64,000 bases of DNA from positions 36,890,001 to 36,954,000 of the forward strand of contig NC_092351.1 of the NCBI RefSeq assembly GCF_963676685.1, written 5' to 3'. The notes beneath the pieces are model-generated. The model searched no databases. It was not told where the DNA came from and was given only the letters and a program-made list of their open reading frames with translations. Numbering within the stretch: position 1 is the stretch's first letter; every line of letters begins with the position of its first letter. The stretch comes from Mytilus edulis (lineage: Eukaryota). Below, piece after piece: positions 1-56,862 of the stretch. Position numbers and translations under genes: made by a program.

Positions 1-474
1 TTTATCTCTATCTATAATAATATTCAAGATAATAACCAAAAACATCAAAATTTTCTCAAAATTACCAATTCAGGGGCAGCAACCCAACAACGGGTTGTCC
101 GATTCATCTGACAATTTCAGGGCAGATAGATCTTGACCTGATAAACAATTTTACCCCTGTCAGATTTGCTCTAAATGCTTTGGTTTTTGAGTTATAAGCC
201 AAAAACTGCATTTTAACCCTATGTTCTATTTTTAGCCATGGCGGCCATCTTGGTTGGTTGGGCGGGTCACCGGACACAATTTTTAAACTAGATACCCTAA
301 TAAAGATTTTGGCCATGTTTGGTTAAATTTGGCCCAGCAGTTTCAGAGGAGAAGATTTTTGTAAAAGTTAACGACGACGGACGCAGGACGACGGACGACG
401 ACGGACGACGACGGACGCCGGACGCCAAGTGATGAGAAAAGCTCACTTGGCCCTTTGGGCCAGGTGAGCTAAAA
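1..474 (-). mobile_element. Helentron-associated non-autonomous element (HINE-like), family A, 5' part
   Basis: Reverse complement of TTTTAGCTCACCTGGCCC..GGGCCAAGTGAGC, then a (CGT)n microsatellite and the core repeat; same family as 6310-8109. Confidence 0.75.
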
Positions 475-987
475 ATCTAATCAAATTGAGAAAGGAAATG
501 GCGAATATGTCAAAGCGACAACCACCCGACCATAGAGCAAACAACAGCCGAAGGCAACCAATGGGTCTTCAATGTAGCGAGGATTCCCGCACCCGTAGGT
601 GTCCTTCAGCTGGCCCCTAAAATATGCATAATAGTACAGTGATAATGGACGTCATACTAAACTCCGAATTATACACAAGAAACTAAAATTTAAAATCATA
701 CAAGACTAACAAAGGCCAGAGGCTCCTGACTTGGGACAGGCGCAAAATTGCGGCGGGGTTAAACATGTTTATGAGATCTCAACCCTCCCCCTATACCTCT
801 AGCCAATGTAGAAAAGTAAAAGAATAACAATACGCACATTAAAATTCAGTTCAAGAGAAGTCCGAGTCTGATGTCAAAAGATGTAACAAAAGAAAATAAA
901 TAAAATGACAATAATACATAAATAACAACAGACTACTAGCAGTTAACTGACAAGCCAGCTCCAGACCTCAATTAAACTGATTGAAAG

Positions 988-1078
988 ATTATGTCTTCAT
1001 CATATGAATATCAGGTACAATCCCTCCCGTTAGGGGTTTAGTATCATACTATCATAAAATATATGAGAAGAACATAAC
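988..1078 (-). promoter_or_regulatory. SECIS element (type II) in the 3' UTR of the PLE
   Basis: Minus strand: helix I TTATGTTCTTCTCATAT/ATATGATGAAGACATAA; core ATGA (1055-1052) with TGA (1013-1011); helix II AGTATGATACT/GGGATTGTACC; unpaired AAA (1039-1037); apical mini-stem CCC/GGG. Confidence 0.82.
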
Positions 1079-1119
1079 CCGTGTCATGCCAACAACTGTT
1101 TTTTTAGAAATAAATGTGT

Positions 1120-4100
1120 TTAGTTCCGATGCAAAGACCCTATCAGTGAATCAATGTTAAAGCCAAAATATGCAATCTTTAATGACCTGACAACAGTATC
1201 GTAACTATATCCCCTTTTAATAAGTCTATTTAAAGGTTTTGTTAGTTTCTGAGGAGAATACTGACATTTTTGTGCTTTATAAAGAATATTTCCATAAAAT
1301 TTTGGATGTGAAATACCTGAACGTATAAGATGTCTGCATGTTGAGTTATATTTACGAATTATTTCCTTATACCGGTGATAAAATTTAGTAAATGTTTTGA
1401 CCAGTTTGTGATATCGAAAACCCTGGTGTAATAATTTTTCAGTAATACATAAATTTCTCTCGCTAAAATCTAATACATTGTTACATACACGAGCGAATCG
1501 TACAAGTTGAGATATATAAACACCATAAGATGGTGACAAGGGAACGTCACCATCTAAAAATGGATAATTAACAATAGGAAATGAAAAATCATCTCTTTTA
1601 TCATAAATTTTTGTATTAAGCTTCCCGTTTATGATATAGATATCAAGATCGAGGAAAGGGCAGTGGTCATTGTTATCATTAGCTTTATTTAAAGTAAGTT
1701 CTACAGGATAAATTTCTTTAGTATACATACTGAAGTCGTCATTATTTAGAGCCAATATATCATCCAAATATCTAAAAGTATTGTTAAATTTTTGTATCAA
1801 ATGTTGTTTTGATGGGTCTTTGCTAATTTTAGTCATAAATTGTAACTCATAACAATACAAAAACAGGTCCGCAATAAGTGGTGCACAGTTAGTCCCCATT
1901 GGAATTCCAATAACTTGACGATATACGGAATCTCCAAAGCGAACAAAAATGTTATCAAGTAAAAATTCAAGTGCATAAATAGTATCAAAGCATGTCCAAT
2001 TGACATAGTTCTTTTGTTTATTGCTACTAAAAAATGATCTAAAAGAGTTTGAACATATGTACTCGCATTCCGACTTTTTAAATGCCCAGTTAATTAGGGA
2101 TGTGAATTTTTTCTTAATAAGAATATGAGGCAAAGTGGTATATAGGGTAGAAAAATCAAAACTTTGAACAGATTCAAAATCACCAATATATGCATGCAAT
2201 TTATCAAGTACTTCCAACGAGTTTTTGACACTCCAAAAGTAATTAATTCCACTATTTTCAAAGGCCTTATTTGAACAATTTATTATCAGGTTTTTTATTG
2301 TACCAAGTGTACTAGTAAGTAAAACAGACAATTTAGTAGTTGAACAATGGCTGGAAGATGAAATAAATCTATATTTGTAAGGTTTTTTGTGCAGCTTCGG
2401 AAGCCAGTACATAGTTGGGACTTTCATTGTGTTTGGTTCTGCTTGTAAAGAAGTAGCTAAAAGTTTATGTTTGTTACAGATGTCGTTTTCTGAAAATGAA
2501 GTCAGTTGGAATGTTGGTGAATTCGTGATTTCCTTTTGCAGAACCTCTATATAAAATTTACGTCAAACAATAATGATATTATTAGCAGCTTTATCAGCCG
2601 GGACAAAAACAAATTCCTTGGCTAGTTCTGTTAGTTTATTTTTGATACGCGAAATAGGGTTTTTATAGTTTTTGTTGAGGGTAAAATGTTCTTTAAAATG
2701 TTGTATTCGAATATCAACTATCTTCATTACTGAATTAAAAAAAGAGTCCAAAGATTTTTTGTCAGCTTTTTCCCGTTTTACCCATTTCAAACAGTAGGCG
2801 CGGAGTGAGTCGTTGATGATATTACGACACTCATTCCAGTTAATAGTTGACGGGGGACGATATTTAGGTCCTTTACTGAGGAATGATTTTAACTCTCGGT
2901 CGCGAACGATGTTAAGGTCTCCTGTTATAACATGGGAAATTGGTCCATAGGTGTATTCTGAATTACTGCAATTACACGACATAGGTGTATTTTCAGTGAT
3001 ATTTACATCTTTACACAATTGGCTATAATTAAACACATATTTTCGGGTAGATTTCTTGTAAATATAACAAATGAGAGGGAGTTCAGTATTATCAAAATAT
3101 CCAGGAATTTGGTCTTTAACAGAATGGTCGTTAAAAATACCGGCAATATTTACAAAATCAAAACCTTTATTGACATACTTTATTTTAATAAAATGTTTTT
3201 TATGATCTTCAGGGCGATCAATTTTTGGAAACATGTTAGAATAACAATATGCCATTATAATTTGGACAATTTCATACTTAGGACTGTAATATGAAATTGT
3301 GTTGCAATCCTCTAAAATTTTATTTAATTTATTTATAGGTAAAGAACAAAGCTTGGTTAACAGATAATGTCTGCCGTTGTTTTTTGAAATGGAAATTAGG
3401 TCCGAAATATTTGTATGGTTGGTCCGAAATTTTCTTTGATTGCGATTTTTTCTGCGTCCATGAGAACGATTTTTACGAACAGTTTTAGAAACTATATCCA
3501 AAATGTTAACAGAATCGGTTCTTGATATATTGCCAATTCCCATGATATTATCATTAAGACCGAGAGGGTAGACTGTCTGTAATTTTTTAATCCAATTTAA
3601 TTCATTTATTTTTCGTGATCGTACAAACTTGGAATGAGATTCACCAGGCTGCTTATTTACTACTTCTAAAGGTTGAACTGTTAAATATTTAATAGGATGA
3701 CTGTGCTTCTTAAGATGTTGATAAATGATACTTTTGAATTTATTGGGTCTTTTAAAACGATACAGGTGTTCTTGCGTGCGTTTAGATAAATATCGCCCAG
3801 TTTCACCTACGTACTGAATACCGCATCCCGGTTTGTTTCATGTGAGTAAATAAATAATACTGTTTGTTTTTCAAGTAATATCAGTTTCAAAATTTAGAGA
3901 AAATGTGCGACCATTAAATGTGGACCTTACTGTATTGTTGGTGGAAAGACGGGGACATGTAAGTCATTTTTTGGCATGACACTTATCGATAGAAGGGTAA
4001 CCACGATTTTTATTGTTGAAAACGTTAGCTATAGTAGTATTTTTAGATAAGCGATTCTGAAGATTGAGACGTGTAGATACCCTTTGAACGAGTTTAGTAT

Positions 4101-4128
4101 TTAATATTTTTCCATTTCTAAGCTTCAT
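1120..4128 (-). CDS. PLE polyprotein (GIY-YIG endonuclease + reverse transcriptase), 1002 aa with 4 in-frame TGA read as putative selenocysteine
   Basis: Manual translation joins ORFs 3964-4167, 2563-3543 and 1120-2427 in one frame: KCHAKK*LTCPRL..DIT*KTNSIIYLLT*NKPGCGIQYVGETGRYLSKRTQEH..ELNWIKKLQTVYPLGLND (GIY-YIG), then VPADKAANNIIIV*RKFY..MYWLPKLHK..FDFSTLYT..GIPMGTNCAP..RYLDD..FLDL (RT). TGA at 3964-3966, 3871-3873, 3838-3840 and 2563-2565; terminal TAA. Confidence 0.9.
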
Positions 4129-4357
4129 ATTTGTTTTTTGGTATGTAGATTTATTACAAAGGAGCAAAGACTGGCGTCCAGAATATGAACCATCACACAG
4201 TAGATTAAATTGTGTAAAAATGATAAAACTGTTCGGCTCAAGACGTCAAATGCTTATTGTCATAAGTTACCCGACAAATTTAACAAAAGATAGGGTATAT
4301 CAAGGTAGCGACTGACGTCTGACTAAATAGATGAATGGGGCTGAATTGATAGATATT

Positions 4358-5204
4358 CCTAAGTACATTTTTAGATTCAGCATATCAAAGAACCCCAAGG
4401 ATTCAATTTTTGTTAAAATCAAACTAAGTTTAATTTTGGACCCTTTGGACCTTAATGTAGATAAATTTTTGATGAAATCAAACAAAGTTCAATTTTTGGA
4501 CCCTTTGGGCCCCTTATTCCTAAAAACCTGTTGGGACCAAAACTCCCAAAATCTATCCCAACCGTTCTTTTGTGGTCATAAACCTTGTGTCAAAATTTCA
4601 TAGATTTCTATTAACTTAAACTAAAGTTATAGTGCAAAAACCAAGAAAATGCTTATTTGGGCCCTTTTTGGCCCTTAATTCCTAAAATGTTGGGACCAAA
4701 ACTCCCAAAATCAATCTCAACCTTCCTTTTGTGGTCATAAACCTTGTGTTTAAATTTCATTGATTTCTATTTACTTATACTAAAGTTATTGTGCGAAAAC
4801 CAAGAATAATGCTTATTTGGGCCCTTTTTTGGCCCCTAATTCCTAAACTATTTGAACTAAAACTCCCAAAATCAATCCCAACCTTCCTTTTGTGGTCATA
4901 AACCTTGTGTCAAAATTTCATAGATTTCTATTTACTTAAACTAAAGTTATAGTGCGAAAACCAAGAAAATGCTTATTTGGGCCCTTTTTGGCCCCTAATT
5001 CCTAAAATTTTGGGACCAAAACTCCCAAAATCAATCCCAACCTTCCTTTTGTGGTTATAAACCTTGTGTTAAAATTTCATAGATTTCTATTCACTTTTAA
5101 TAAAGTTTAGAGTGCGAAAACTAAAAGTATTCGGACGACGACGACGACGCCAACGTGATAGCAATAAACAACGAAAAATTAAAATTTTTGCGGTCGTATA
5201 AAAA
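4358..5204 (-). mobile_element. HINE-like element, family B, truncated
   Basis: Reverse copy of the 14535 element: TTTTTATACGACCGCA end, (CGT)n and about 150-bp tandem core units. Confidence 0.7.
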
Positions 5205-5821
5205 TCAATACAAGTCAGATCAATCAAGTAATTGCCATATATATAGAAAATTGATATTCATTTCAAATAATCCAACAAAAAATATTTGATCTTCGTACAG
5301 TGTAATGAAAAGATTACAAACTTGAGATGAATAACATAGTAAATCATAGTCAAATAAGAATTAGTAGTTTTATGAATAAATCAGATATATAAGAGACGAA
5401 TGTCTATATAATTTCTTTTGTCTTTGCCTTTTTATAGGAAAAGACAAGAAACTGCTAAGTAATACTGTGCTTCATTCATTATTAAAATAAGGAAAGGTTA
5501 AACAAAAAACAAAAATATCTTCAACTCAATTATACATTTATAGGCAAAATAAATACATTTGTGTCTGCTAAAGCTACCAACCCAAATCTTAAGTGCCTAC
5601 CCTTACACTTTTTTACCATTTTGGAACAATCACTGTTAAAGTCAGACTGATTCCCTAGTAGTAACCAGCTAAAAAAAAATTGTAAAATAAAATGATATTG
5701 CCTATCTACCATCCCTACATGTTTACATCATGTTAGCAGAAACTCAAGTATTTATTATTATTTTTTTGTTGTATGAGAAAAGCAAGTTTTCTTAAGATCC
5801 TCTAATCGAGACCCTTTATTA

Positions 5822-6031
<210 letters not shown>

Positions 6032-6309
6032 TTAATTATTCTGATACATTTCAAAACCATACAATTTATTAAACGAATTTGAAATGCATACTGAATTAAA
6101 ATCCTTTAATATATTTTTATTTTTGTAGGCTAATGGTGGTAGTATACTATCGATATTATCTTTCCATAAAGCTTTTGAGATCTGCACAAGAAATCCTGAG
6201 ATCACTATATTATCTGTTCAAGTATCTGTAATATGTCCATAGGTATCAGCCAATTGATTACAGATGAAAGAAAAATCGATTGCAAAAAGCATACAATGTA
6301 GTTGTTTCA

Positions 6310-8109
6310 TTTTTAGCTCACCTGGCCCGAAGGGCCAATGAGCTTTTCCCATCACTTGGCGTCCGGCGTCCAGCGTCGTCGTCGTCCGTCGTCGTTAACT
6401 TTTACAAAAATCTTCTCCTCTGAAACTACTGGGCCAAATTAAACCAAACTTGGCCACAATCATCATTGGGGTATCTAGTTTAAAAAATGTGTGGCGTGAC
6501 CCGGCCAACCAACCAAAATGGCCGCCATGGCTAAAAATAGAACATAGGGGTAAAATGCAGTTTTTGGCTTATAACTCAAAAACCGAAGCATTTAGAGCAA
6601 ATCTGACATGGGGTAAAATTGTTTATCAGGTCAAGATCTATCTGCCCTCAAATTTTCAGATGAATCTGACAACCCGTTATTGGGTTGCTGCCCCTGAACT
6701 GGTAATTTTAGGGAATTTTTGCTGTTTTTGGCTATTATCTTGAATATTATTATAAATAGAGATAAACTGTAGATAGCAATAATGTTCAGCAAAGTAAGAT
6801 TTACAAATAAGTCAACATGACCAAAATGGTCAGTTGACCCCTTTAGGAGTTATTGACCTTTATAGTCAATTTTTAACCATTTTTCGTAAATCTTAGTAAT
6901 CTTTTACAAAAATCTTCTCCTCTGAAACTACTGGGCCAAATTAATCCATACTTGGCCACAATCATCTTTGGGATATCTAGTTTAAAAAATGTGTGGCGTG
7001 ACCCGGCCAACCAACCAACATGGCCGCCATGGCTAAAAATAGAACATAGTGGTAAAATGCAGTTTTTGGCTTATAACTCAAAAACCAAAGCATTTAGAGC
7101 AAATCTGACATGCGGTAAAAGTGTTAATCAGGTCACGATCTACCTGTCCTGAAATTTTCAGATGAATCGGATAACCTGTTGTTGGGTTGCTGCCCCTGAA
7201 TTGGTAATTTTAAGGAAATTTACTGTTTTTGGTTATTATCTTGAATATTATTATAGATAGAGATAAACGGTAAACAGCATTAATGTTCAGCAAAGTAAGA
7301 TTTACAAATAAGTCAGCATGACCAAAATGGTCAGTTGACCCCTGAAGGAGTTATTGCCCTTTATAGTCAATTTTTAACCATTTTTTCGTAAATCTTAGTA
7401 ATCTTTTACAAAAATCTTCTTCTCTGAAACTACTGGGCCAAATTAAACTAAGCTTTGCCACAATCATCATTGGGGTAATTTGTTTAAAAAATGTGTGGCG
7501 TGACCTGGCCAATCAACCAAAATGGCTGCCACGGCTAATAATAGAACATAGGTGTAAAATGCAGTTGTATGGCTTATAACTCAAAAACCAAAGCATTAAG
7601 AGAAAATCTGACAGGGTTTAATTGTTTATCAGGTCAAGATCTATCTGCCCTGATGTTTTCACATGGATCGGACAACCCGTTGTTAGGTTACTGTCCTTAA
7701 TTGGTAATTTTAAGGAAATTTTGCCGTTTTTTGTTATTATCTTGAATATTATTATAGATAGAGATAAACTGTATACAGCAATAACGTTCAGCAAAATAAG
7801 ATCTACAAATAAGTTTACATGACCAAAATAGTCCATTGACCCCTTAAGGAGTTATTGCCCTTTATAGTTAATTTTTAACATTTTTCATAAATTTTTGTAA
7901 ATTTGTAGAAAATATTTTCCACTGTAATTACTGGGCCAAGTTCATTATAGACAAGAGATATTTGTAGCAACAAGAATGTTCAGTAAAGTAAGATCTACAA
8001 ACACATCACTATCACCAAAACACAATTATGTCATGAATTTATCTGTGTCCATTATTTAATATGCACAAGACCAAGGTGAGCGACACAGGCTCTTTAGAGC
8101 CTCTAGTTT
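6310..8109 (+). mobile_element. HINE-like element, family A, complete
   Basis: 5' subTIR GCTCACCTGG with hairpin, (CGT)n, about 500-bp tandem cores, 3' CCAAGGTGAGC plus hairpin AGGCTCTTTAGAGCCT, ending CTAGTTT in a T run. Confidence 0.78.
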
Positions 8110-8496
8110 AATAACACTTTCATTTTTCTAAAAACACCTTTCATCCCCTTCCTATGCCATATATTTTTTCTTCCTTTTGTTATTGTAATCATTTAATGTA
8201 TTTTGTTATATATTTATTTGTTTGCTATTCAGCATGTTTTCATAGCTTGTAATTTTATTTTTGAATTTAGGGAGACAGATTTGTATAAGAACACTGTTTC
8301 CTAATCCCAATTATTGAATCGTTTGTATATTTCGTATTTATCTCAATACCCATATATAACAATTTCTTTAATAAAATATGTTAACAATAAAAAGTGTGTT
8401 CTATAGGAGTTTTTCTGTAGGATATAGTACGCTGTCAAATTAAATGCTACAGTACTTTTTTTTTTAAATTTCTGTGACTACAATGTATATGCATAC

Positions 8497-14534: not shown

Positions 14535-16820
14535 TTTTTATACGACCGCAAAATTTGAAAAATTTTTCGTCGTATATTGCTATCACGTTGGCGTCGTCGG
14601 TGTCGTCGGCGTCGTCGTCGTCGTCGTCGTCGTCCGAATACTTTTAGTTTTCGCACTCTAACTTTAGTAAAAGTGAATAGAAATCTATGAAATTTTAACA
14701 CAAGGTTTATGACCACAAAAAGAAGGTTGGGATTGATTTTGGGAGTTTTAGTCCCAACATTTTAGGAATTAGGGGCCAAAAAGGGCCCAAATAAGCATTT
14801 TCTTGGTTTTCGCACTATAACTTTAGTTTAAGTAAATAGAAATCTATGAAATTTTGACATAAGGTTTATGACCACAAAAGAAAGGTTGGGATTGATTTTG
14901 GGAGTTTTGGTTCCAACAGTTTAGGAATTAGGGGCCAAAAAAGGGCCCAAATAAGCATTATTCTTGGTTTTCGCACAATAACTTTAGTTTAAGTAAATAG
15001 AAATCAATGAAATTTAAACACAATGTTTATGACCACAAAAGGAAGGTTGGTATTGATTTTGGGAGTTTAGGTCCTAACAGTATAGGAATTAGGGGCCAAA
15101 AAGGGACCCAAATAAGCATTTTTTTTGGTTTTCGCGCCATAACTTTAGTATAAGTAAATAGAAATCTATGAAATTTAATCACAAGGTTTATGACCATAAA
15201 AGGAAGGTTGGTATTGATTTTGGGAGTTTTGGTCCCAACAGTTTAGGAATAAAGGGCCCAAAGGGTCCAGATTTAAACTTTGTTTGATTTTATCAAAAAT
15301 TGAATAATTGGGGTTCTTTGATATGCCGAATCTAACTGTGTATGTAGATTCTTAATTTTTGGTCCCGTTTTCAAATTGGTCTACATTAAGGTCCAAAGGG
15401 TCCAAAATTAAACTTAGTTTGATTTTAACAAAAATTGAATGCTTGGGGTTCTTTGATATGCTGAATCTAAAAATGTACTTAGATTTTTTTATTATTGGCC
15501 CAGTTTTCAAGTTGGTCCAAATCGGGGTCCAAAATTAAACTTTGTTTGATTTCATCAAAAATTGAATAATTGGGGTTCTTTGATATGCCAAATCTAACTG
15601 TGTATGTAGATTCTTAATTTTTGGTCCCGTTTTCAAATTGGTTTACATTAACGTCCAAAGGGTCCAAAATTAAACTAAGTTTGATTTTAACAAAAATTAA
15701 ATTCTTGGGCTTATTTGATATGCTTTATCTAAATATGTACTTTGATTTTTGATTATGGGCCCAGTTTTCAAGTTGGTCCAAATCAGGATTCCATATCAAG
15801 TATTGTGCAATAGCAAGAAATTTTCAATTGCACAGTATTGCACAATAGCAAGAAATATCTAATTGCACAATATTGTGCAATAGCAATCAATTTTCAATTG
15901 GAGTTATCTTTCTTTGTATAGAATAGTAGTTGATAATATATGTTGGAAATTTACCAGACATGACTATGATGTCATTTTCTATTTTTATTTGCCAATAACT
16001 TTATGTAAATAACTTCATTGGAAATTTGCCAATATAAAATGTTGCTGATGAAGCTTTTTTTCCTTATCTTATCTAAAATGTTTTTAGATAATGTATGTTG
16101 GACATTTGCCAGACATGACTATGATGTCATTTTCTATTTTTATTTGCCAATAACTTTATGTAAATAACTTCATTGGAAATTTGCCAATATTAAATGTTGC
16201 TGATGAAGTTTTTTTTATTGTTTTATACAATAAACAATGTATATTCACTTTTACTACCAACCAATCTTTACCATTCAGTGATAACAAGCACTTTATTTTA
16301 CATTTTAATATCTTATGATGTATTTAAAAGAGTAGTTATTGTTGCAAACTCCATTAGAAATTTGAATTGATATCAGTTTTGGAAAAAGGGAAACGGGGAT
16401 GTGAAAAAAGGGGGGGGGGGGGGGGGGGGGTTTAAATTTTTCTCATTTCAGATTTCATAAATAAAAAGAAAATTTCTTCAAACATTTTTTTGAGAGGATT
16501 AATATTCAACAGCATAGTGAATTGCTCAAAGGCAAAAAAAAAAACTTTTAAGTTCATTAGACCACATTCATTCTGTGTCAGAAACCTATGCTGTGTCAAC
16601 TATTTAATTTTAGATTTAAAAAATTTGAAGAAATCTTTAATTGATTTGTAAAATCTTGACATTTGTTTTGTGTAAAAAAAAAACATATAATGTCAAAAAT
16701 TTGATCACAATCCAAATTCAGAGCTGTATCACGCTTGAATGTTTTGTCCATACTTGCCCCAACTGTTCAGGGTTCGACCTCTGCGGTCGTATAAAGCTGC
16801 GCCCTGCGGAGCACCTGGTT
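14535..16820 (+). mobile_element. HINE-like element, family B, complete
   Basis: TTTATACGACCGCA..TGCGGTCGTATAAA subTIRs, (CGT)n, two kinds of internal tandem repeat, and a GC-rich 3' terminus. Confidence 0.72.
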
Positions 16821-25216: not shown

Positions 25217-28200
25217 GGTTTCTTGTGAACGTAGTTGTCTTGTTTCTTGTGTACAGAGTTGTAATATTTCTTGTGTACAGAGTTGTTTTGTTTCCTGTGT
25301 ACAGAGTTGTCTTGTTTCTTTTGTAAAGAGTTGTCTTGTTTCTTGTGTACAGAGTTGTCTTGTTTCTTGTGTTCATAATTGTCTTGCTTCTTGTGAACAG
25401 AGTTGTCTTGTTTCTTGTGAACAGAGTTGTTCTTGTTTCTTATGTACAGAGTTGTCTTGTTTCTTGTGTACAGAGTTGTCTTGTTTCTTGTGAACATAGT
25501 TGTCTTGTTTCCTGTGTACAGAGTTGTCATGTTTTTTGTGTACAAAGTTGTCTTGTTTCTTGTGTATAGAGTTGTATTATTTCTTGTGTACAGAGTTGTC
25601 ATGTTTCCTGTGTTCAGAGTTGTCTTGTTTCCTGTGTACAAAGTTGTCTTGTTTCTTGTGAACATAGTTGTCTTGTTTCCTGTCCACAGAGTTCTCTTGT
25701 TTCTTTTGTACAGTGTTGTCTTGTTTCTTGTGTACAGAGTTGTCTTGTTTCTTTTGTACAGAGTTATCGTGTTTCCTGTGTTCAGAGTTGTCTTGTTTCC
25801 TGTCTACAGAGTTGTCTTGTTTCTTTTGTACAGTGTTGTCTTGTTTCTTGTGTACAGAGTTGTCTTGCTTCTTGTGTACAGAGTTATCTTGTTTCCTGTG
25901 TTCAGAGTTGTCTTGTTTCTTTTGTACAGAGTTGTCTTGTTTCTTGTGTACAGAGTTGTCTTGTTTCTTTTGTACAGAGTTGTCTTGTTTCTTGTGTACA
26001 GAGTTGTCTTGTTTCCTGTGTACAGAGTTGTCTTGTTTCTTTTGTACAGAGTTGTCTTGTTTCTTGTGTTCAGAGTTGTATTGTTTCCTGTCTACAGAGT
26101 TGTCTTGTTTCTTTTGTACAGAGTTATCTTGTTTCCTGTGTTCAGAGTTGTCTTGTTTCTTTTGTACAGAGTTGTCTTGTTTCTTGTGTGCAGAGTTGTC
26201 TTGTTTCCTGTATACAGAGTTGTCTTTGTTTCTTGTGTACAGAGTTGTCTTGTTTCTTTTGTACAGAGTTGTCTTGTTTCTTTTGTACAGTGTTGTCTTG
26301 TTTCTTGTGTACAGAGTTGTCTTGTTTCCTGTGTACAGGGTTGTCTTGTTTCTTTTGTACAGTGTTGTCTTGTTTCTTGTGTTCAGAGTTGTCTTGTTTC
26401 CTGTCTACAGAGTTGTCTTGTTTCTTTTGTACAGAGTTATCTTGTTTCCTGTGTTCAGAGTTGTCTTGTTTCTTTTGTACAGAGTTGTCTTGTTTCTTGT
26501 GTGCAGAGTTGTCTTGTTTCCTGTATACAGAGTTGTCTTTGTTTCTTGTGTACAGAGTTGTCTTGTTTCTTTTGTACAGAGTTGTCTTGTTTCTTTTGTA
26601 CAGTGTTGTCTTGTTTCTTGTGTTCAGAGTTGTCTTGTTTCTTTTGTACAGAGTTGTCTTGTTTCTTTTGTACAGAGTTATCTTGTTTCCTGTGTTCAGA
26701 GTTGTCTTGTTTCCTGTGTTCAGAGTTGTCTTGTTTCTTTTGTACAGAGTTGTCTTGTTTCTTGTGTACAGAGTTGTCTTGTTTCCTGTGTTCAGAGTTG
26801 TCTTGTATCTTGTGTACAGAGTTGTCTTGTTTCTTGTGTACAGAGTTGTCTTGTTTCCTGTGTTCAGAGTTGTCTTGTTTCTTTTGTACAGAGTTGTCTT
26901 GTTTCCTGTGTACAGAGTTGTCTTGTTTCTTTTGTACAGTGTTGTCTTGTTTCTTGTGTTCAGAGTTGTCTTGTTTCCTGAGTTCAGAGTTGTCTTGTTT
27001 CTTTTGTACATAGTTGTCTTGTTTCCTGTCTACAGAGTTGTCTTGTTTCTTTTGTACAGTGTTGTCTTGTTTCCTGTGTTCAGAGTTGTCTTGTTTCTTT
27101 TGTACAGAGTTATCTTGTTTCCTGTGTTCAGAGTTGTCTTGTTTCTTTTGTACAGTTGTCTTGTTTCTTGTGTTTCTTGTGTACAGAGCTGTCTTGTTTC
27201 TTTTGTACAGAGTTATCGTGTTTACTGTGTTCAGAGTTGTCTTGTTTCCTGTGTACAGAGTTGTCTTGATTCCTGTATAAAGAGTTGTCTTGTTTCATTT
27301 GTACAGAGTTGTCCTGTTTCTTGTGTACAGAGTTGTCTTGTTTACTGTGCACAGAGTTGTCTTGTTTCCTGTGTAAGAAGTTGTCTTGTTTCCTGAGTAC
27401 AGAGTTGTCTTGTTTCCTGTGTACAGAGTTGTCTTGTCATCTTTCTTGTGTGACTTAGGAAGCCAATACATAGTGGGACACGTGGGATTTTTACACACCA
27501 CACACACAACATATTATTGTCCCTTGTTGATAGAAACAGAGGAACAAAATGATTGAAAAATCCTTCATTGAGTAACAGGATGTGACTAACAATGAATCCA
27601 AATAAAATGTCAACAGTTAACTTGTTGTTTTTAGTTGCTCACGCTTAGGCATAATCCTGAAATTTCCACCCATGCACTATAAACTAGAGTTGTCTTGTTT
27701 CTTTTGTACAGTGTTGTCTTGTTTCTTGTGTTCAGAGTTGTCTTGTTTCCTGTGTTCAGAGTTGTCTTGTTTCTTTTGTACAGAGTTGTCTTGTTTCTTG
27801 TGTACAGAGTTGTCTTGTTTCCTGTGTACAGAGTTGTCTTGTTTCTTGTGTTCAGAGTTGTCTTGTTTCCTGTCTACAGAGTTGTCTTGTTCCTTTTGTA
27901 CAGTGTTGTCTTGTTTCTTGTGTACAGAGTTGTCTTGTTTCCTGTCTGCAGAGTTGTCTTGTTTCTTTTGTCCAGAGTTGTCTTGTTTTTTGTGTACAGA
28001 GTTGTCTTGTTTCTTTTGTACAGTGTTGTCTTGGTTTTTTTTACAGAGTTGTCTTGTTTCTTGGGTACAGAGTTGTCTTGTTTCTTTTGTACAGAGTTGT
28101 CTTGTTTCCTGTGTTCAGAGTTGTCTTGTTTCTTGTGTACAGAGTTATCTTGTTTCCTGTGTTCAGAGTTGTCTTGTTTCTTGTGTACAGAGTTGTCTTG

Positions 28201-31200
28201 TTTCTTTTGTACAGAGTTGTCTTGTTTCTTTTGTAAAGAGTTGTCTTGTTTCTTGTGCACAGAGCTGTCTTGTTTCTTTTGTACAGAGTTATCCTGTTAC
28301 CTGTGTTCAGAGTTGTCTTGTTTCCTGTGTTCAGAGTTGTCTTGTTTCCTGTCTACAGAGTTATCTTGTTTCTTTTGTACAGTGTTGTCTTGTTTCTTGT
28401 GTACAGAGTTGTCTTGTTTCCTGTGAACAGAGTTGTCTTGTTTCTTTTGTACAGAGTTGTCTTGCTTCCTGTGTTCAGAGTTGTCTTGTTTCCTGCGTAC
28501 AAAGTTGTCTTGTTTCTTGTGAACATAGTTGTCTTGTTTCCTGTCCACAGAGTTGTCTTGTTTCTTTTGTACAGTGTTGTCTTGTTTCTTGTGTACAGAG
28601 TTGTCTTGTTTCTTTTGTACAGAGTTATCGTGTTTCCTGTTTTCAGATTTGTCTTGTTTCCTGTCCACAGAGTTCTCTTGTTTCTTTTGTACAGTGTTGT
28701 TTTGTTTCTTGTGTACAGAGTTGTCTTGCTTTTTGTGTACAGAGTTATCTTGTTTCCTGTGTTCTGAGTTGTCTTGTTTCTTTTGTACAGAGTTGTCTTG
28801 TTTCTTGTGTACAAAGTTGTCTTGTTTCTTGTGAACATAGTTGTCTTGTTTCTTGTGTTCAGAGTTGTCTTGTTTCTTTTGTACAGTGTTGTCTTGTTTC
28901 TTTTGTACAGTGTTGTCTTGCTTCTTGTGTACAGAGTTATCTTGTTTCCTGTGTTCAGAGTTGTCTTGTTTCTTTTGTACAGAGTTGTCTTGTTTCTTTT
29001 GTACAGTGTTGTCTTGTTTCTTTTGTACAGTGTTGTCTTGTTTCTTTTGTACAGAGTTGTCTTGTTTCCTGTGTACAGAGTTGTCTTGATTCCTTTATAC
29101 AGAGTTGTCTTGTTTCTTTTGTACAGTGTTGTCTTGTTTCTTGTGTACAGAGTTATCTTGTTTCCTGTGTTCAGAGTTGTCTTGTTTCTTTTGTACAGAG
29201 TTGTCTTGTTTCTTTTGTACAGAGTTGTCTTGTTTCCTGTGTTCAGAGTTGTCTTGTTTCCTGTGTTCAGAGTTGTCTTGTTTCTTTTGTACAGAATTGT
29301 CTTGTTTCTTGTGTACAGAGTTGTCTTGTTTCTTTTGTACAGAGTTATCTTGTTTCCTGTGTTCAGAGTTGTCTTGTTTCTTTTGTACAGAGTTGTCTTG
29401 TTTCTTGTGTACAGAGTTGTCTTGTTTCTTTTGTACAGAGTTATCATGTTTCCTGTGTTCAGAGTTGTCTTGTTTCCTGTCTACAGAGTTGTTTTGTTTC
29501 TTTTGTACAGTGTTGTCTTGTTTCTTGTTTATAGAGTTATCTTGTTTCCTGTGTTCAGAGTTGTCTTGTTTCTTTTGTACAGAGTTGTCTTGTTTTTTGT
29601 GTACAGAGTTGTCTTGTTTCCTGTCTTCAGAGTTGTCTTGTTTCTTTTGTACAGAGTTGTGTTGTTTCTTGTGTACATAGTTGTCTTGTTTCTTTTGTAC
29701 AGAGTTATCATGTTTCCTGTGTTCAAAGTTGTCTTGTTTCCTGTGTACAGAGTTGTCTTGTTTCTTTTGTACAGTTTTGTCTTGTTTCTTGTGTTCAGAG
29801 TTGTCTTGTTTCCTGTCTACAGAGTTGTCTTGTTTCTTTTGTACAGTGTTGTCTTGTTTCTTGTGTACAGAGTTGTCTTGTTTCTTGTGTACAGAGTTAT
29901 CTTGTTTCCTGTGTTCAGAGTTGTCTTGTTTCTTTTGTATAGAGTTGTCTTGTTTCTTGTGTACAGAGTTGTCTTGTTTCTTTTGTACAGTGTTGTCTTG
30001 TTTCTTGTGTTCAGAGTTGTCTTGTTTCCTGTCTACAGAGTTGTCTTGTTTCTTTTGTACAGTGTTGTCTTGTTTCTTGTGTACAGAGTTGTCTTGCTTC
30101 TTGTGTACAGAGTTATCTTGTTTCCTGTGTTCAGAGTTGTCTTGTTTCTTTTGTACAGAGTTATCTTGTTTCCTGTGTTCAGAGTTGTCTTGTTTATTTT
30201 GTACAGTTGTCTTGTTTCTTGTGTACAGAGCTGTCTTGTTTCTTTTGTACAGAGTTATCGTGTTTCCTGTGTTCAGAGTTGTCTTGTTTCCTGTGTACAG
30301 AGTTGTCTTGATTCCTGTATACAGAGTTGTCTTGTTTCTTTTGTACAGAGTTGTCCTGTTTCTTGTGTACAGAGTTGTCTTGTTTACTGTGTACAGAGTT
30401 GTCTTGTTTCTTTTGTACAGTGTTGTCTTGTTTCTTGTGTTCAGAGTTGTCTTGTTTCCTGTCTACAGAGTTGTCTTGTTTCCTGTGTACAGAGTTGTCT
30501 TGTTTTTTTTGTACAGTGTTGTCTTGTTTCTTGTGTACAGAGTTATCTTGTTTCCTGTGTTCAGAGTTGTCTTGTTTCTTTTGTACAGAGTTGTCTTGTT
30601 TCTTTTGTACAGAGTTGTCTTGTTTCCTGTGTTCAGAGTTGTCTTGTTTCCTGTGTTCAGAGTTGTCTTGTTTCTTTTGTACAGAATTGTCTTGTTTCTT
30701 GTGTACAGAGTTGTCTTGTTTCTTTTGTACAGAGTTATCTTGTTTCCTGTGTTCAGAGTTGTCTTGTTTCTTTTGTACAGAGTTGTCTTGTTTCTTGTGT
30801 ACAGAGTTGTCTTGTTTCTTTTGTACAGAGTTATCATGTTTCCTGTGTTCAGAGTTGTCTTGTTTCCTGTCTACAGAGTTGTCTTGTTTCTTTTGTACAG
30901 TGTTATCTTGTTTCTTGTGTATAGAGTTGTCTTGTTTCCTGTGTACATAGTTGTCTTGTTTCTTTTGTACAGAGTTGTCTTGCTTCTTGTGTACAGAGTT
31001 ATCATGTTTCCTGTGTTCAGAGTTGTCTTGTTTCTTTTGTACAGAGTTGTCTTGTTTTTTGTGTACAGAGATGTCTTGTTTCCTGTATTCAGAGTTGTCT
31101 TGTTTCTTTTGTACAGAGTTGTCTTGTTTCTTGTGTACATAGTTGTCTTGTTTCTTTTGTACAGAGTTATCATGTTTCCTGTGTTCAAAGTTGTCTTGTT

Positions 31201-31940
31201 TCCTGTGTACAGAGTTGTCTTGTTTCTTTTGTACAGTGTTGTCTTGTTTCTTGTGTTCAGAGTTGTCTTGTTTCCTGTCTACAGAGTTGTCTTGTTTCTT
31301 TTGTACAGTGTTGTCTTGTTTCTTGTGTACAGAGTTGTCTTGTTTCTTGTGTACAGAGTTATCTTGTTTCCTGTGTTCAGAGTTGTCTTGTTTCTTTTGT
31401 ACAGAGTTGTCTTGTTTCTTGTGTACAGAGTTGTCTTGTTTCTTTTGTACAGTGTTGTCTTGTTTCTTGTGTTCAGAGTTGTCTTGTTTCCTGTCTACAG
31501 AGTTGTCTTGTTTATTTTGTACAGTGTTGTCTTGTTTCTTGTGTACAGAGTTGTATTGCTTCTTGTGTACAGAGTTATCTTGTTTCCTGTGTTCAGAGTT
31601 GTCTTGTTTCTTTTGTACAGAGTTATCTTGTTTCCTGTGTTCAGAGTTGTCTTGTTTCTTTTGTACAGTTGTCTTGTTTCTTGTGTACAGAGCTGTCTTG
31701 TTTCTTTTGTACAGAGTTATCGTGTTTCCTGTGTTCAGAGTTGTCTTGTTTCCTGTGTACAGAGTTGTCTTGATTCCTGTATAAAGAGTTGTCTTGTTTC
31801 ATTTGTACAGAGTTGTCCTGTTTCTTGTGTACAGAGTTTTCTTGTTTACTGTGCACAGAGTTGTCTTGTTTCCTGTGTAAGAAGTTGTCTTGTTTCCTGA
31901 GTACAGAGTTGTCTTGTTTCCTGTGTACAGAGTTGTCTTG
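25217..31940. repeat. 24-bp tandem satellite array (AGAGTTGTCTTGTTTCYTKTGTWC), interrupted by a spacer at about 27437-27686
   Basis: Direct reading; 8-aa periodicity in all translated frames. Confidence 0.97.
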
Positions 31941-32446
31941 TCATCTTTCTTGTGTGACTTAGGAAGCCAATACATAGTGGGACACGTGGGATTTTTACAC
32001 ACCACACACACAACATATTATTGTCCCTTGTTGATAGAAACAGAGGAACAAAATGATTGAAAAATCCTTCATTGAGTAACAGGATGTGACTTACAATGAA
32101 TCCAAATAAAATGTCAACAGTTAACTTGTTGTTTTTAGTTGCTCACGCTTAGGCATAATCCTGAAATTTCCACCCATGCACTATAAACTAGAGCATGAAA
32201 TAAGGTCAAGCCAGCATTATGTGACAGAATTGTGCTTCATTCAAGAAACCACATATAAGTGTGAAAATAATGTCAAAACCAAAATATACATGACAAACAA
32301 AAATGCACTATTTTACATACTAATGTCATCTGTGCTTTATTTCTTGTAGAGAATATTTTCATATTGCATCTTGTTACATTTATACTTTGTTTATTGCATC
32401 ATGGAAAGTAAAATGTTATAATTAAAACCTCAAGATAGGACCTTGG

Positions 32447-33829: not shown

Positions 33830-33932
33830 TTCTCTCTGTATTGAAGACCCATTGGTGGCCTTCGGCTGTTGTTTGCTCTTTGGTCGGGTTCTTGTCTCTT
33901 TGATGCATTCCCCATTTCCATTCTCACTTTTA
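33830..33932 (+). repeat. Isolated 3' tail of the PLE family
   Basis: Reverse complement of 483-580 (TTGAAGACCCATTGGT..CATTTCCATTCTCA). Confidence 0.75.
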
Positions 33933-34277: not shown

Positions 34278-35572
34278 GGCCAATTAAAATTAATTGATAG
34301 ATTTTCATCCCCGCCCGCCCCTTTAAAATCGTCCCGCCCCGATTTTTTTTATTTTGAAAAATTTACGATTTGCGGATTTGTTCATCTCCGTTTCCGGTAA
34401 CCGTCAAATATTTTGTTTCCTTCCAAACTTCCTGTTTCAAATTTCGGTTTTCGTATTACTTCGAGTAATTAAATAAGATTCTGCAGCTCTATGATGACAA
34501 AATCGTTTACCGAGAATAGAGATTGATTTCAAGATGGGCATGAAATAATCGGGTTACAAGTAATACGCTGTGTCCAAGAATGCAAATCGCGGCATGACAC
34601 ACATTTCTGTGATTTAGAAAACTATTGATTTTTGTATTGATAAAATGACTTTGTGGAAGGAATTTTGGACTGTGAATTATACCCAAAGAGCACAAATCGT
34701 GGGACACATTCGTAGAAATGAATAAATGAAATGACGCAAGCACGAACTTGTTAGATTTATTACAGTATAATTGAGTCAGTTCAAAAAGTCGGCAAACATA
34801 CTTTAATCGGAGAGCACGAATTTCATTACAAAATTGCTTATCTCCACCGGGACTCGAACCCGGGACCTCTGTGTTACAAGGCAGCGCGCTAACCGACTGA
34901 GCTAAAGAAGTACTTCCTTAGCTCAACTGCTTACGGCTTACTAAGTGTTTACTAAGTTTTTCTAGGGGAAGCAATCCCGTCACACTACTTAGATTTACCC
35001 ATGTCTTTTTTGTTGACAGACAGCACACACACCTTCTGTCCCAATATCCTCAATAGAGCCATTAAACATCTTCTCCTTTTCGGTTAAGTTCATGTTTTAC
35101 ATATTAGTTATATTAGCATCTATAAAAAGAATCCTAAAAGCACCAACCCTTTCGTTTTCAAAACGGTTTCATTTTATTCTGAACTCGTAATTCTTTAGTT
35201 GCATATTTGTTTCATTTTATGGAGACAAAAAAATGGTCGCTTAAAAAGACACTAAATTTGGTGAAGGTAGTCCAACTAAAGAGAGCATTCTTCTTTTATG
35301 TTTTTGCTGTTTAGGTTTCTAAAGCAGCAATTACATGTAAAACAATGGTTGCCAATTGAGATTTTCATTCATGTTAAGATTTGAAATATTGTGTACGATT
35401 CCTTATATATATATGTATATACATAATATAAGCTTATTATTACACTTGAATATTTGAAGAACACGTCACAAGAGGTTTCATAAGAAATAAAAATTAAAAA
35501 ATTAAATCCTCCCACCCGCCCCATTTTTTTCAAAAATTTGGATGAAAATCTACTAATTAATTTTAGTTGGCC
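34278..35572. mobile_element. PIF/Harbinger-like non-autonomous element
   Basis: TTA|GGCCAATTAAAATTAATTGATAGATTTTCATCC..GGATGAAAATCTACTAATTAATTTTAGTTGGCC|TTA. Confidence 0.8.
34841..34911 (-). pseudogene. tRNA-Thr(TGT)-like pseudogene or SINE head
   Basis: TAGCTCAGTCGGTTAGCGC..CTTGTAA..GGTCCCGGGTTCGAGTCCCGG; anticodon and acceptor stems are imperfect. Confidence 0.6.
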
Positions 35573-36271: not shown

Positions 36272-38882
36272 TTTTTATCTCACCTGGCCCGAAGGGCCAA
36301 GTGAGCTTTTCTCATCACTTGGCGTCCGTCGTCGTCCGTCGTCGTTAACTTTTACAAAAATCTTCTCCTCTGAAACTACTGGGCCAAATTAAACCAAACT
36401 TGGCCACAATCATCATTGGGGTATCTAGTTTAAACTAGAGGCTCTAAAGAGCCTGTGTCGCTCACCTTGGTCTATGTGCATATTTAACAAAGGACACAAA
36501 TGGATTCATGACAAAATTGTATTTTGGTGATGGTGATGTGTTTGAAGTTCTTACTTTACTGAACATTCTTGCTTCTTACAATTATATCTATAATGAACTT
36601 TGCCCATTAGTAACAGAGAAAAATATTTGGTAAAAATTTACATAAATTTACCAAATTAATGAAAATTGTTAAAAATTGACTATAAAGGGCAATAACTCCT
36701 TAAGGGGTCAATTGACCATTTAGGTCATGTGGACTTATTTGTAGATCTTACTTTGATGAACATTATCGCTGTTTACAGTTTATCGCTATCTATAATAGTA
36801 TTCAAGATAATAACCAAAAACAGCAAAATTTCTTTAAAAATTACCAATTGGAGGGCAGCAACCCAACAACAGGTTGTCCAATTCATTTGAATATTTCAGG
36901 GCAGATATATATTGACTTGATTAACAATTAAACTCCTTGTCAGATTTCCTCTAAATGATTTGGTTTCAGAGTTGTAAGCAAAAAACTACATTTTACCCCT
37001 GTTCTATTTTTAGCCGTGGTGGCCATCTTGGTTGGATGGCCAGGTCATCGGACACATTTTTCAAACAAGGTACCTTAAAGATGATTGTGGCCAAGTTTGA
37101 ATTAATTTGGCCCAGTAGTTTCAGAGGAGAAGATTTTTGTAAAAGATAACTAAGATTTACGAAAAATGGTTAAAAATTGACTATAAAGGGCAATAACTCC
37201 TAAAGGGGTCAACTGACCATTTCCGTCATGTTGACTTATTTGTAAATCTTACTTTGCTGAACATTATTGCTGTTTACAGTTTATCTCTATCTATAATAAT
37301 ATTCAAGATAATAACCAAAAACGGCAAAATTTCCTCAAAATTACCAATTCAGGGGCAGCAACCCAACAACAGGTTGACCGATTCATCTGAAAATTTCAGG
37401 GCAGATAGATCTTGACCTGATAAACAATTTTACCCCACATCAGATTTGCTCTAAATGCTTTGGTTTTTGAGTTATAAGCCAAAAACTGCATTTTACCCCT
37501 ATGTTCTATTTTTAGCCGTGGCGGCCATCTTGGTTGGTTGACCGGGTCACGCCACACATTTTTTAAACTAGATACCCCAAAGATGATTGTGGCCAAGTTT
37601 GGATTAATTTGGCCCAGTAGTTTCAGAGGAGAAGATTTTTGTAAAAGATTACTTAGATTTATGAAAAATGGTTAAAAATTGACTATAAAGGGCAATAACT
37701 CCTAAAGGGGTCAACTGACCATTTCGGTCATGTTGACTTACTTGTAAATCTAACTTTGCCAAACATTATTGCTGTTTACAGCTTATCTCTATCTATAATA
37801 ATATTCAAGATAATAACCAAAAACAGCAAAATTTCCTCAAAATGACCAATTCAGGGGCAGCAACCCAACAACGGGTTGACCGATTCATCTGAAAATTTCA
37901 GGGCAGATAGATCTTGACCTGATAAACATATTTACCCCATGTCAGATTTGCTCTAAATGCTTTGGTTTTTGAGTTATAAGCCAAAAACTGCATTTTACCC
38001 CTATGTTCTATTTTTAGCCGTGGCGGCCATCTTGGTTGGTTGACCGGGTCACGCCACACATTTTTTAAACTAGATACCCCAATGATGATTTTGGTCAAGT
38101 TTGGTTAAATTTGGCCCAGTAGTTTCAGAGGAGAAGATTTTTGTAAAAGTTAACGACGACGGACGACGGACGACGATGGACGATAGAGGACGACGACGGA
38201 CGCCGGACGCAAAGTGATGGGAATAGCTCACTTGGCCCTTCGGGCCAGGTGAGCTAAAAATGTGTGGCGTGACCCGGCCAACCAACCAAGATGGCCGCCA
38301 TGGCTAAAAATAGAACATAGGGGTAAAATGCAGTTTTCAGCTTATAACTCAAAAACCAAAGCATTTAGAGCAAATCTGACGGGGGTAAAATTGTTTATCA
38401 GGTCAAGATCTATCTGCCCTGAAATTTTCAGATGAATCCGACAACCCGTTGTTGGGTTGCTGCCGCTGAATTGGTAATTTTAGGGAATTTTTGCTGTTTT
38501 TGGTTATTATCTTGAATATTATTATAGATAGAGATAAACTGTAAACAGCAATAATGTTCAGCAAAGTAAGATTTACAAATAAGTCAACATGACCGAAATG
38601 GTCAGTTGACCCCTTTAGGAGTTATTGCCCTTTATAGCCAATTTTTAACCATTTTTCGTAAATCTTAGTAATCTTTTACAATAATCTTCTCCTCTGAAAC
38701 TACTGGGCCAAGTTCATTATAGATAGAGATAATTGTAAGCAGCAAGAATGTTCAGTAAAGTAAGATGTACAAACACATCACCATCACCAAAACAAAATTT
38801 TGTCATGAATCCATCGGTGTCCTTTGTTTAATATTCACATAGACCAAGGTGAGCGACACAGGCTCTTTAGAGCCTCTAGTTT
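36272..38882 (+). mobile_element. HINE family A copy hosting a nested copy
   Basis: Host sequence GGGGTATCTAGTTTAAA|AAATGTGTGGCG is split at about 36432/38260. Confidence 0.8.
36432..38260 (-). mobile_element. HINE family A, complete, nested in opposite orientation
   Basis: Both termini present (AAACTAGAGGCTCTAAAGAGCC..GGTGAGCTAAAAA). Confidence 0.8.
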
Positions 38883-39650
38883 CATATACTTACCATATAA
38901 ATTTATCAATATCATGAATATTGTGACTGTTCCTGTATCCTTCAATATTAGTTGGGATACAAATTTTATGAAAACATATATCCATAAAATTCAAGTTTTC
39001 CAAAATTGGTACTCACTTAAATTATAAATGTAGTCAGTATTGTGTTAACATGGTTCATGGTTGTTTATTATTTTTGAAAGCAACGCCTGTTATTCCTCGT
39101 TTTACCCTGTAATGGCTGTATGTTAGTAGAAAACTGTGTTACAATAGTTTAATGACACATGCCTACATTTTGTGTATCAATTTATTTGTGTATCAAAGCA
39201 GGTCTTAACTAAACTATGAATCAGATGTCAGAAATACATTTGGTATTGTGAGGACAGGTAGGAGAGTGTGCTTTCACTGCTATTTATTATGGTAACTTGA
39301 GCAATTTAATTGTTTTCATTAGGAAGAAGATTCATTGCATTTACCCAATGTAAAAACAACTTTGTAAACCAATATGTTTGCAATAAATGCAAAAAATTTG
39401 CAGAAAAAAGTCTCAAATTTGTAACATGTACATGATGTAGGAAAATGTTAGCCTCTGTATTTAATTATTCATTGGCGGATCCAGGGGGGTTCCGGGATTG
39501 GAACCTGCCCCTGAATTATTAACTAAAATGAAAACAGCACTTCCCCTTTACGCTTGACTGGTGATTTAGAAAAAGATTCATATGATCAATTTCATATTTT
39601 TTTACATTGTAATCTATTACCATGATTACTTTAGAATATAGAAAACATAC

Positions 39651-39710
39651 CTCTGATGCTGTTTTTCCAATAGGAACAATATTGCTGTCTTTCTTTGCAA
39701 TGCTTTCCAT
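39651..39710 (-). CDS. ANAPC15: ANAPC15 exon 2
   Basis: MESIAKKDSNIVPIGKTASE resembles [20 protein letters not shown]. Confidence 0.92.
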
Positions 39711-39889
39711 CTAAAAAAATATTTATAGCAAAGTCAAAATTATTGCATGAATTTTCTGCAAATTAAACTCTTTATCATGGATTTCAGCACTGCCATCATG
39801 ACAAACTTGTGTCGTGATTAAGAATAAGTACATACAGAACAAATATTGGCTACAAATTTTAAGCCATTGCCAAAATCTTAACTTCAATC

Positions 39890-40310
39890 CCTGGACTTAC
39901 ATCTAGAATTGACACAGAGGATCTGTTGAGAACAAAATATACAACAGAAGAGATGATTTCAGCTTTCAATTTGTGAACTTTTCATCTCTATCTGGCTGGG
40001 AACATGCTAGCTGTGCCTGTATTAAGATTACACATGGTTATATAACTCAGTTGATTTCTTGATAGAGGGTTTATGCTTATAAGGATCTATTTGACCACAG
40101 GTTCTAGGTTTTATTGTAGCCATCATGTGTTAGTTGACCATTATGAAATATCAGTTTCAGAGATAACAACAGTTAATGTGTTCAAATATTGTTAGGGCCA
40201 CAAACTCGACCACTTTTCCTGGAATGTTTAATCACTGTCATTGCTGAGTTTTAGAATTATCCCATAACTTGAACTTACATGAGTCACATGTGGTGTACCT
40301 GAGTTCACTC
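39890..40310 (+). pseudogene. Decayed PLE RT C-terminal fragment
   Basis: Frameshifted LDLHLE..LRTK..RDDFSF.FVNF..GYITQL, homologous to FLDLDI..TKIYDKRDDFSFPIVNY..GVYISQL in the intact element. Confidence 0.7.
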
Positions 40311-40364
40311 TAGTCCAAATAATTATGAAGTCTTGAAAGGCTATTATAAATTTATTTCTTTGAC

Positions 40365-55321: not shown

Positions 55322-55482
55322 GTGAGAAACAGTTCTAAAACATTTACATTTTGATAAAAAAAAAAAATTAAAGCAGATATAGACTTAAATGAAATTTCCA
55401 TTAAGCCTGTCTGTGACTTTTTTTTGTAATAAATAATGTATAGCGGAGATGCATTATGCCCTATTTTAAATAGGTCACACTA

Positions 55483-56532: not shown

Positions 56533-56862
56533 TTGTGTTATTACATGTAAGTATAATGATTGTTTTAGATCAAGAAGCTGGCATTAGTATCAATATATTA
56601 AGCTTGCATAGCTTTAGTTGTAAACTATTATTGATTATTGTAAATGTTTTAAAAGTATCAATTCAAGATAGCTTTAATTGCAAATTGGTATTGCAAAATG
56701 TTTCAAAAGTAGTAATCCGAGAGCAAACATTCTGTATTTTATCAAAGGAATAAAGTTATTACATGAAACCAAATACATGTTAATTTTTAATGGATTCTTT
56801 AACCGGAATAATAAAAGAAATAAAAAAATCCATTTTCATGTCTTTGTTATTTTTTTCTACAG

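Follow-up and report, generated by a model that had tools for sequence, protein, structure and literature searches.

A 64,000-nucleotide stretch of Mytilus edulis DNA (the window) carries on its minus strand an intact-looking Naiad Penelope-like retrotransposon that would encode a selenoprotein with several selenocysteines (Sec), and in which Sec would serve as a structural metal ligand in three four-ligand sites; we give this reading a probability of roughly 0.72. The open reading frame (ORF) runs from an ATG at 4128 to a TAA at 1122-1120 and specifies 1,002 amino acids when TGA is read as Sec. It contains four in-frame TGA codons (U55, U86, U97 and U522), no other stop or frameshift, and seven true Trp codons, all of them TGG. 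The original prediction had described a C-x4-U-x2-C motif (C50/U55/C58), a single U (U86) and a U-x4-C motif (U97/C102) inside the GIY-YIG motif, all within about 50 codons, and these motifs and positions are confirmed: C50 to C102 spans 53 codons, U55 to U97 spans 43, and U97-x4-C102 sits between the GIY-like SIIY (90-93) and the YIG-like QYVG (105-108). The fourth UGA, placed at 2563, is U522 (2565-2563), and termination there gives a product of 521 residues, in agreement with the ~520 predicted.

Table 1. Features of the Naiad copy. Residue numbers refer to the ORF; fractions are homologues with the named residue among those covering the position.
Feature	Position	Strand	Remarks
Insertion, approximate extent (~3.9 kb)	483..4358	-	extent from self-comparison; bounded by other repeats
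Naiad ORF	1120..4128	-	N-terminal GIY-YIG endonuclease, linker, telomerase-like RT
SECIS-like element	1001..1065	-	Rfam SECIS_1, 30.9 bits, E 0.004; gathering score 35
Endonuclease region, residues 46-193	3550..3993	-	conserved R117, H121, E176, N192 in near-invariant columns
C50 (TGT)	3979..3981	-	putative ligand 1, site 1; Cys 74/79, His 4/79
U55 (TGA)	3964..3966	-	putative ligand 2, site 1; Cys 95/96
C58 (TGT)	3955..3957	-	putative ligand 3, site 1; Cys 96/100
U86 (TGA)	3871..3873	-	putative ligand 4, site 1; Cys 105/106
U97 (TGA)	3838..3840	-	putative ligand 1, CCHH motif (site 2); Cys 122/123
C102 (TGC)	3823..3825	-	putative ligand 2, site 2; Cys 122/123
H138	3715..3717	-	putative ligand 3, site 2; His 133/133
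H144	3697..3699	-	putative ligand 4, site 2; 72 His and 48 Cys among 130
KR-rich block, residues 225-235	3424..3456	-	Naiad feature
CxC motif, C385/C387	2968..2976	-	putative site 3 ligands; Cys 138/144 and 141/145
H399	2932..2934	-	putative ligand, site 3; His 172/173
DKA motif, residues 512-514	2587..2595	-	Naiad diagnostic
U522 (TGA)	2563..2565	-	putative fourth ligand, site 3; Cys 155/159
RT core	1759..2160	-	FDFS (657-660), GIPMG (741-745), YLDD (787-790); IFD-length spacing

By its motif diagnostics and predicted folds the ORF is a Naiad. The diagnostics given in the available passages of Craig et al. 2021 (PMC8557442) are an N-terminal GIY-YIG endonuclease, CX2-5CxxC, CCHH, a KR-rich block, CxC, DKA and the IFD. 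Here a GIY-YIG endonuclease lies N-terminal to the reverse transcriptase (RT) in a single ORF; the CX2-5CxxC motif ahead of it takes the form C50-x4-U55-x2-C58; the CCHH motif, with two Cys positions within the GIY-YIG core, is made up of U97, C102, H138 and H144; and the KR-rich block, CxC (385-387) and DKA are all in place. The IFD, some 20 additional residues between RT3 and RT4, is reflected in the 83 residues that separate D658 from G741, compared with ~84 for Naiad-Amil and ~61 for Penelope (by-eye counts from Fig. S1 of the same paper). AlphaFold2 models, built with Cys replacing Sec, are confident both for the endonuclease region (pLDDT 94.9) and for the full-length protein (pLDDT 87.3). 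The former matches the GIY-YIG domain of I-TevI (Z 10.4, rmsd 1.9 A, 91 aligned residues), and the best solved matches of the latter are telomerases (E 4e-11). Modelling with U replaced by C had been put forward as a check on the metal sites: it yields the GIY-YIG fold with confidence, but the grouping of ligands continues to come from comparison of homologues. Catalysis would stay with the ordinary GIY-YIG and RT residues. Pfam returned a single weak and unrelated match on the ORF, and a Cys-type homologue does match Pfam GIY-YIG. No hammerhead ribozyme is among the seven Rfam matches (E up to 10) to positions 1-6000, a search that can miss variants, and no repeat of the 3' end, as a pseudo-LTR or tandem arrangement would produce, was found upstream of the copy; several complete Naiads are listed without a pLTR in the available part of PMC8557442.

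The TGA codons occupy a narrow class of positions. An alignment of 190 homologues shows that nine of the 29 Cys/TGA positions in the ORF (50, 55, 58, 86, 97, 102, 385, 387 and 522) are conserved at 94-99%, the remaining 20 reaching at most 57%, and all four TGAs are among the nine. Under a null model of nonsense mutation, four random changes all fall on these nine positions with P ~1e-7; restricting the same null to Cys codons gives P = 0.005. Conservation among homologues, proposed earlier as a check, is present, the nine columns that include the Sec sites being Cys at 94-99%. The original prediction also made much of the clustering of three of the four Sec at the N-terminus, in putative metal-binding motifs. 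That the TGAs stand on conserved, finger-like cysteines holds, but the cluster itself is unremarkable: P=0.019 against uniform placement becomes P=0.60 once Sec is confined to the nine conserved Cys. Because six of those nine lie in residues 50-102, the cluster of Sec mirrors where the ligands sit.

From the comparison of homologues we infer that the Sec residues, each at the position of a conserved Cys, are structural metal ligands, and that the ligands fall into three sites; the metal-ligand reading probably holds for all four Sec. Site 1 (C50/U55/C58/U86) would lie ahead of the nuclease core, site 2 (the CCHH motif, U97/C102/H138/H144) on that core, and site 3 (C385/C387/H399/U522) would tie the linker to the N-terminal hairpin of the RT. 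Each Sec would contribute a side-chain ligand to a structural metal ion, most likely Zn2+, and ligand Cys would have become exchangeable with Sec in a lineage once it possessed a SECIS. Exchange between Cys and His is typical of metal ligands and atypical of redox cysteines, and the ligand columns do swap the two (columns 144 and 50; Table 1); 128 of 131 rows have Cys or His 3 to 8 residues after H138, the background being 31%. Together with the I-TevI-type fold, this exchange supports the earlier proposal that the UGAs replace conserved Cys of zinc-finger-like motifs and not those of an oxidoreductase site, an interpretation that Craig et al. 2021 had also given.

The grouping of ligands draws on co-occurrence, in comparisons whose rows come from a few related clades and are not independent. 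By eye in Fig. S2 of Craig et al., as available, all 20 rows that possess the upstream Cys motif, a few residues (under 10) away in some of them, have Cys at the U86 position, and none of the 14 rows lacking the motif does; the latter include Penelope/Poseidon, which retain CCHH. Because of this co-occurrence U86 is taken to complete site 1: the "single U" of the original prediction is indeed a conserved Cys position, but it does not stand alone and is most likely the fourth ligand of C50/U55/C58. In a like count, also by eye and from the published rows available, all 23 Chlamys rows that contain CxC-His have Cys where U522 stands, and none of 18 canonical Penelope-like element (PLE) rows lacking CxC-His does. 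The top covariation pairs include 394-584, 396-584 and 421-518 (z 7.6, 6.9 and 5.5), which put the CxC-His segment near the RT N-terminus; on the strength of these pairs and of the co-occurrence with CxC-His, U522 is probably the residue that completes site 3. Between the invariant ligands themselves covariation does not discriminate, as every such pair gives 3.0-3.5 whether the grouping is right or wrong. Sequence and structure searches of solved structures found no GIY-YIG structure with these metal sites.

The UGAs would be recoded as Sec by the machinery of the host. A SECIS-like hairpin 55 nt past the TAA has an intact AUGA...AA...UGA core and an ordinary folding energy (z -0.04 and -0.99), and downstream of the UGAs the folding-energy test detected no strong hairpin (z -0.22 to 0.67). 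A simple SECIS pattern scan gave nothing, missing even the Rfam SECIS_1 match, and is uninformative. Poor recoding would lower protein output as a by-product, probably for the most part at the first UGA; that early UGAs throttle translation, as previously suggested, is plausible by analogy with general Sec biology.

Relatives in the protein databases carry marks at the same positions. Their stops and tryptophans were read from predicted proteins, so that TGA is deduced, with P0191 as the anchor: this protein is 98% identical to the N-terminus and reads W precisely where the three N-terminal TGAs lie, and therefore a W in the databases at these positions is the gene caller's reading of TGA. The combination W55/W86/W97 is also present in P0192 (75% identical), P0063 (73%), P0193 (56%) and P0142 (54%), and P0087 has C55/W86/W97; position 55 is W in five of the six Sec-clade proteins that cover it, and U86 and U97 are kept in all six that cover both positions. 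Alignable internal ends occur in 58 of 242 proteins, 20 at residue 521 and 15 at residue 384, in a set gathered by searches aimed at these regions, such that the counts are no census. Residues 384 and 521 are those just before two mid-ORF Cys (385 and 522). A stop at 385 is found in P0046, P0050, P0055, P0148, P0194-P0196, P0199-P0201, P0203, P0208 and P0210-P0212, and W in P0058, P0070, P0140, P0218 and P0229; the present element has TGT. Judged from these predicted proteins, position 385, the first Cys of CxC, is an apparent Sec site in relatives, and one missing from the list of Craig et al.

In a tree of 32 rows (residues 200-384) one clade (100/98) is formed by 23 rows, those with a stop or W and their allies, within which the 385-stop and 522-stop types are intermixed. 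A strict alternation of Sec between 385 and 522 was considered and dropped: six of 29 matches begin within 393-417 and run to 521, as would suit a stop at each of the two positions. Across the clade U86 and U97 look fixed, and positions 55, 385 and 522 vary between families. That U86 and U97 are fixed in every Sec-clade protein seen suggests some Sec-specific selection, which the exchange of ligands does not explain. Since gene callers render Sec codons as Trp (P0191, P0192, P0193, P0063, P0142), the family is hidden in protein databases; its relatives, present there as fragments or Trp mistranslations, indicate a clade wider than the two described clam families, and mis-annotated. A separate observation concerns P0204, a Mytilus edulis sulfotransferase 1A1-like model that contains a 54-aa endonuclease piece of the Naiad family (83-85% identical), by either exonisation or mis-prediction.

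Several other explanations of the TGA codons and of the sites have to be weighed against structural Sec. The simplest is a dead copy whose TGAs arose by nonsense mutation, or a genetic code that assigns TGA to Trp, and it would account for the W in database translations and for a SECIS score under the Rfam cut-off. Yet the four stops are all TGA and all at near-invariant Cys (P ~1e-7), the same positions are stop or W in families 54-98% identical, and neither the TGG-only use of Trp codons nor the otherwise open frame agrees with it; the comparison of sequences effectively refutes this explanation. A different question is which metal is held. CDGSH sites consist of three Cys and one His, and the three Cys/Sec and one His proposed for site 3 resemble them, such that one or more sites might hold iron or an Fe-S cluster with the same ligands. 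However, Cys4 and CCHH/CCHC sites of nucleic-acid enzymes usually bind zinc, and Pfam finds neither CDGSH nor any finger family on the ORF. We consider iron unlikely, while noting that in the available passages of PMC8557442 the designation as fingers is tentative and a weak homology of CxC to the Fe-binding zf-CDGSH fingers is reported. If Sec instead turned the fingers into sensors, with oxidation or low selenium freeing the metal or blocking synthesis and so turning transposition off, one would understand why U86 and U97 are kept in six of six Sec-clade proteins and in both clam families although reversion to Cys takes a single base; the reactivity of selenolate, greater than that of thiolate, would suit such a role, and the independent origin in spiders and clams argued in the passages of Craig et al. 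(PMC8557442) points the same way. The movement of Sec among ligand positions 55, 385 and 522 is nevertheless easier to reconcile with interchangeable ligands than with a tuned switch, no strong hairpin follows any UGA, and no thioredoxin-like fold is among the top structural matches, the best for the domain being GIY-YIG nucleases (the absence of an oxidoreductase fold from that list leaves room for a redox role). A redox switch, as originally proposed, is backed by no result of the analysis, and we think it improbable. Conceivable, if still doubtful, is an arrangement in which every site has at least one Sec ligand (Zn-Se; site 1 would be Cys2-Sec2), with Sec wandering between positions and selected for dependence on host selenium or redox state. 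If true, Sec would have a naturally occurring role as a non-catalytic metal ligand in a nucleic-acid enzyme.

The remaining alternative assigns the UGA in the middle of the ORF (U522 in this element, U385 in relatives) a selected function as a stop, which would yield an endonuclease-plus-linker protein and set the ratio of endonuclease to RT (EN:RT). Of the relatives with at least 42% identity that cover positions 385 and 522, 11 of 11 carry a stop or W at one or other of the two and none is Cys/Cys; 35 of the 58 internal ORF ends are at 384 or 521; and UGA is found at the 522 position in all four Sec-Naiads described in the available part of PMC8557442. Even so, position 522 is near-invariant Cys in ordinary Naiads and Chlamys, Cys522 occurs in at least six close relatives (P0001, 79%; P0002, 76%; P0237, P0218, P0223, P0241), and of 167 proteins that span the two positions 385 and 522, 152 are Cys/Cys. 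Moreover, according to the introduction of PMC5727441, SELENOP UGAs after the first are read far more efficiently. The first being inefficient, most loss would by analogy be expected at U55, giving a 54-aa peptide. In a calculation with assumed efficiencies, offered as illustration, the 521-aa product amounts to 0.1-0.25 of the full-length protein under SELENOP-like reading and to as much as ~1 if the UGAs are independent. Retention of a mid-ORF UGA is compatible with preservation of a truncation point as well as with preservation of the Sec in site 3. Control of EN:RT by the fourth UGA is weakened by Cys522 in relatives, keeps in its favour the lack of Cys/Cys among those 11 relatives, and is in our estimation a poor bet; on the comparative evidence U522 is probably a metal ligand too, and not mainly a switch.

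The surroundings of the copy can be described briefly. Self-comparison assigns 1-476 and 4359-4468 to other repeats. The segment 483-581 recurs at 33832-33930 (99 bp, 86%), where a 5'-truncated member of this Naiad family has probably left its 3' end. Units of a ~500-bp repeat form tandem arrays at 1-476, 6309-8111, 36272-41337 and 55476-56533 and flank the 3' end of the element, and related 159-161-bp tandem arrays (4495-5121 and 14647-15785) belong to the repeat abutting its 5' end. A 24-bp tandem array of ~280 copies extends over 25218-31941, and short vestiges of a Naiad-like RT (PTMYWLPK) lie at 27442-27477 and 31937-31981; the plus strand at 39865-40071 retains the degraded 3' end of a further Naiad-like RT (40% identity over 70 aa). 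A second retroelement, on the minus strand at 57809-62164, has overlapping long ORFs with RT and RNase H in 58687-60930. Two of its ORFs share a frame and are separated by one TGA at ~60746, and no SECIS at the Rfam gathering score was found in this element; the last ORF has an HSTR motif, which we take to be that of tyrosine recombinases, making the element presumably DIRS-like. A weak Rfam tRNA match at 34839-34911 (minus strand, 31.4 bits) is possibly a SINE head.

The finding is known in substance, because Sec at each of these Cys positions is reported for clam or spider Naiads in the available passages of Craig et al. 2021 (PMC8557442). According to these, the Naiads from two clams and from two spiders each carry a SECIS together with three or four UGAs that coincide with conserved Cys; UGA sites before GIY-YIG and 8 aa after DKA are common to all four families, further ones lie in CX2-5CxxC in spiders and at the first CCHH Cys in clams, and it is suggested that Sec is advantageous within such fingers. 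What is new, set against those passages and by sequence, is a probable mussel family with the clam-type pattern plus U55, previously reported only in a spider, together with the apparent Sec site at CxC in relatives. A literature search from which subscription journals were largely absent found no later paper or experimental follow-up on Sec-Naiads, no Sec-encoding transposon other than the selenoprotein Naiads, and no relevant paper on Sec as a structural zinc ligand; a review, in the part available, mentions only presumed Zn binding at the CXXU of SELENOM, and the available passages of a biochemical study of a full-length PLE (PMC11167929) mention neither zinc nor CCHH. Since the copy looks intact, it lends itself directly to testing whether a nuclease-RT can use Sec as a structural zinc ligand, and the map of three sites, with all four Sec included, makes such a test specific.

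Among the systems described in the passages of PMC8557442, the clam elements Naiad_Scon and Naiad_Mmer come closest. They share with the present element the order of domains, Sec at the U86, U97 and U522 positions and the long U-x4-C loop in CCHH, which is C-x2-C in 113 of 116 homologues; they differ in having Cys at 55, where this element has Sec, and a SECIS only 1-21 nt past the stop, as opposed to 55 nt here, and Naiad_Scon has an extra UGA in RT6 that is absent here. The spider elements Naiad_Sdum and Naiad_Smim, treated there as an independent origin, likewise have Sec within CX2-5CxxC and at the U86 and U522 positions, in Naiad_Sdum at the U55 position as here; unlike this element, they have Sec at C50, Cys at 97 and a reduced IFD. 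The published mussel elements Naiad_Mgal and Naiad_Mcor share the Naiad architecture and probably the host genus, but they are not listed as selenoproteins, show no U in the N-terminal 400 residues displayed, and have a longer first Cys spacer, belonging to a different lineage. Outside the Naiads, the catalytic domain of I-TevI (PDB 1ln0) has the same fold as residues 89-195, without Cys/His ligands at the aligned positions and without the upstream Cys4 module. Selenoprotein P, like this Naiad, has several UGAs in one mRNA and possible truncated isoforms; it has two SECIS and coding-region structures, whereas the Naiad has a single SECIS-like element and lacks strong hairpins downstream of its UGAs.
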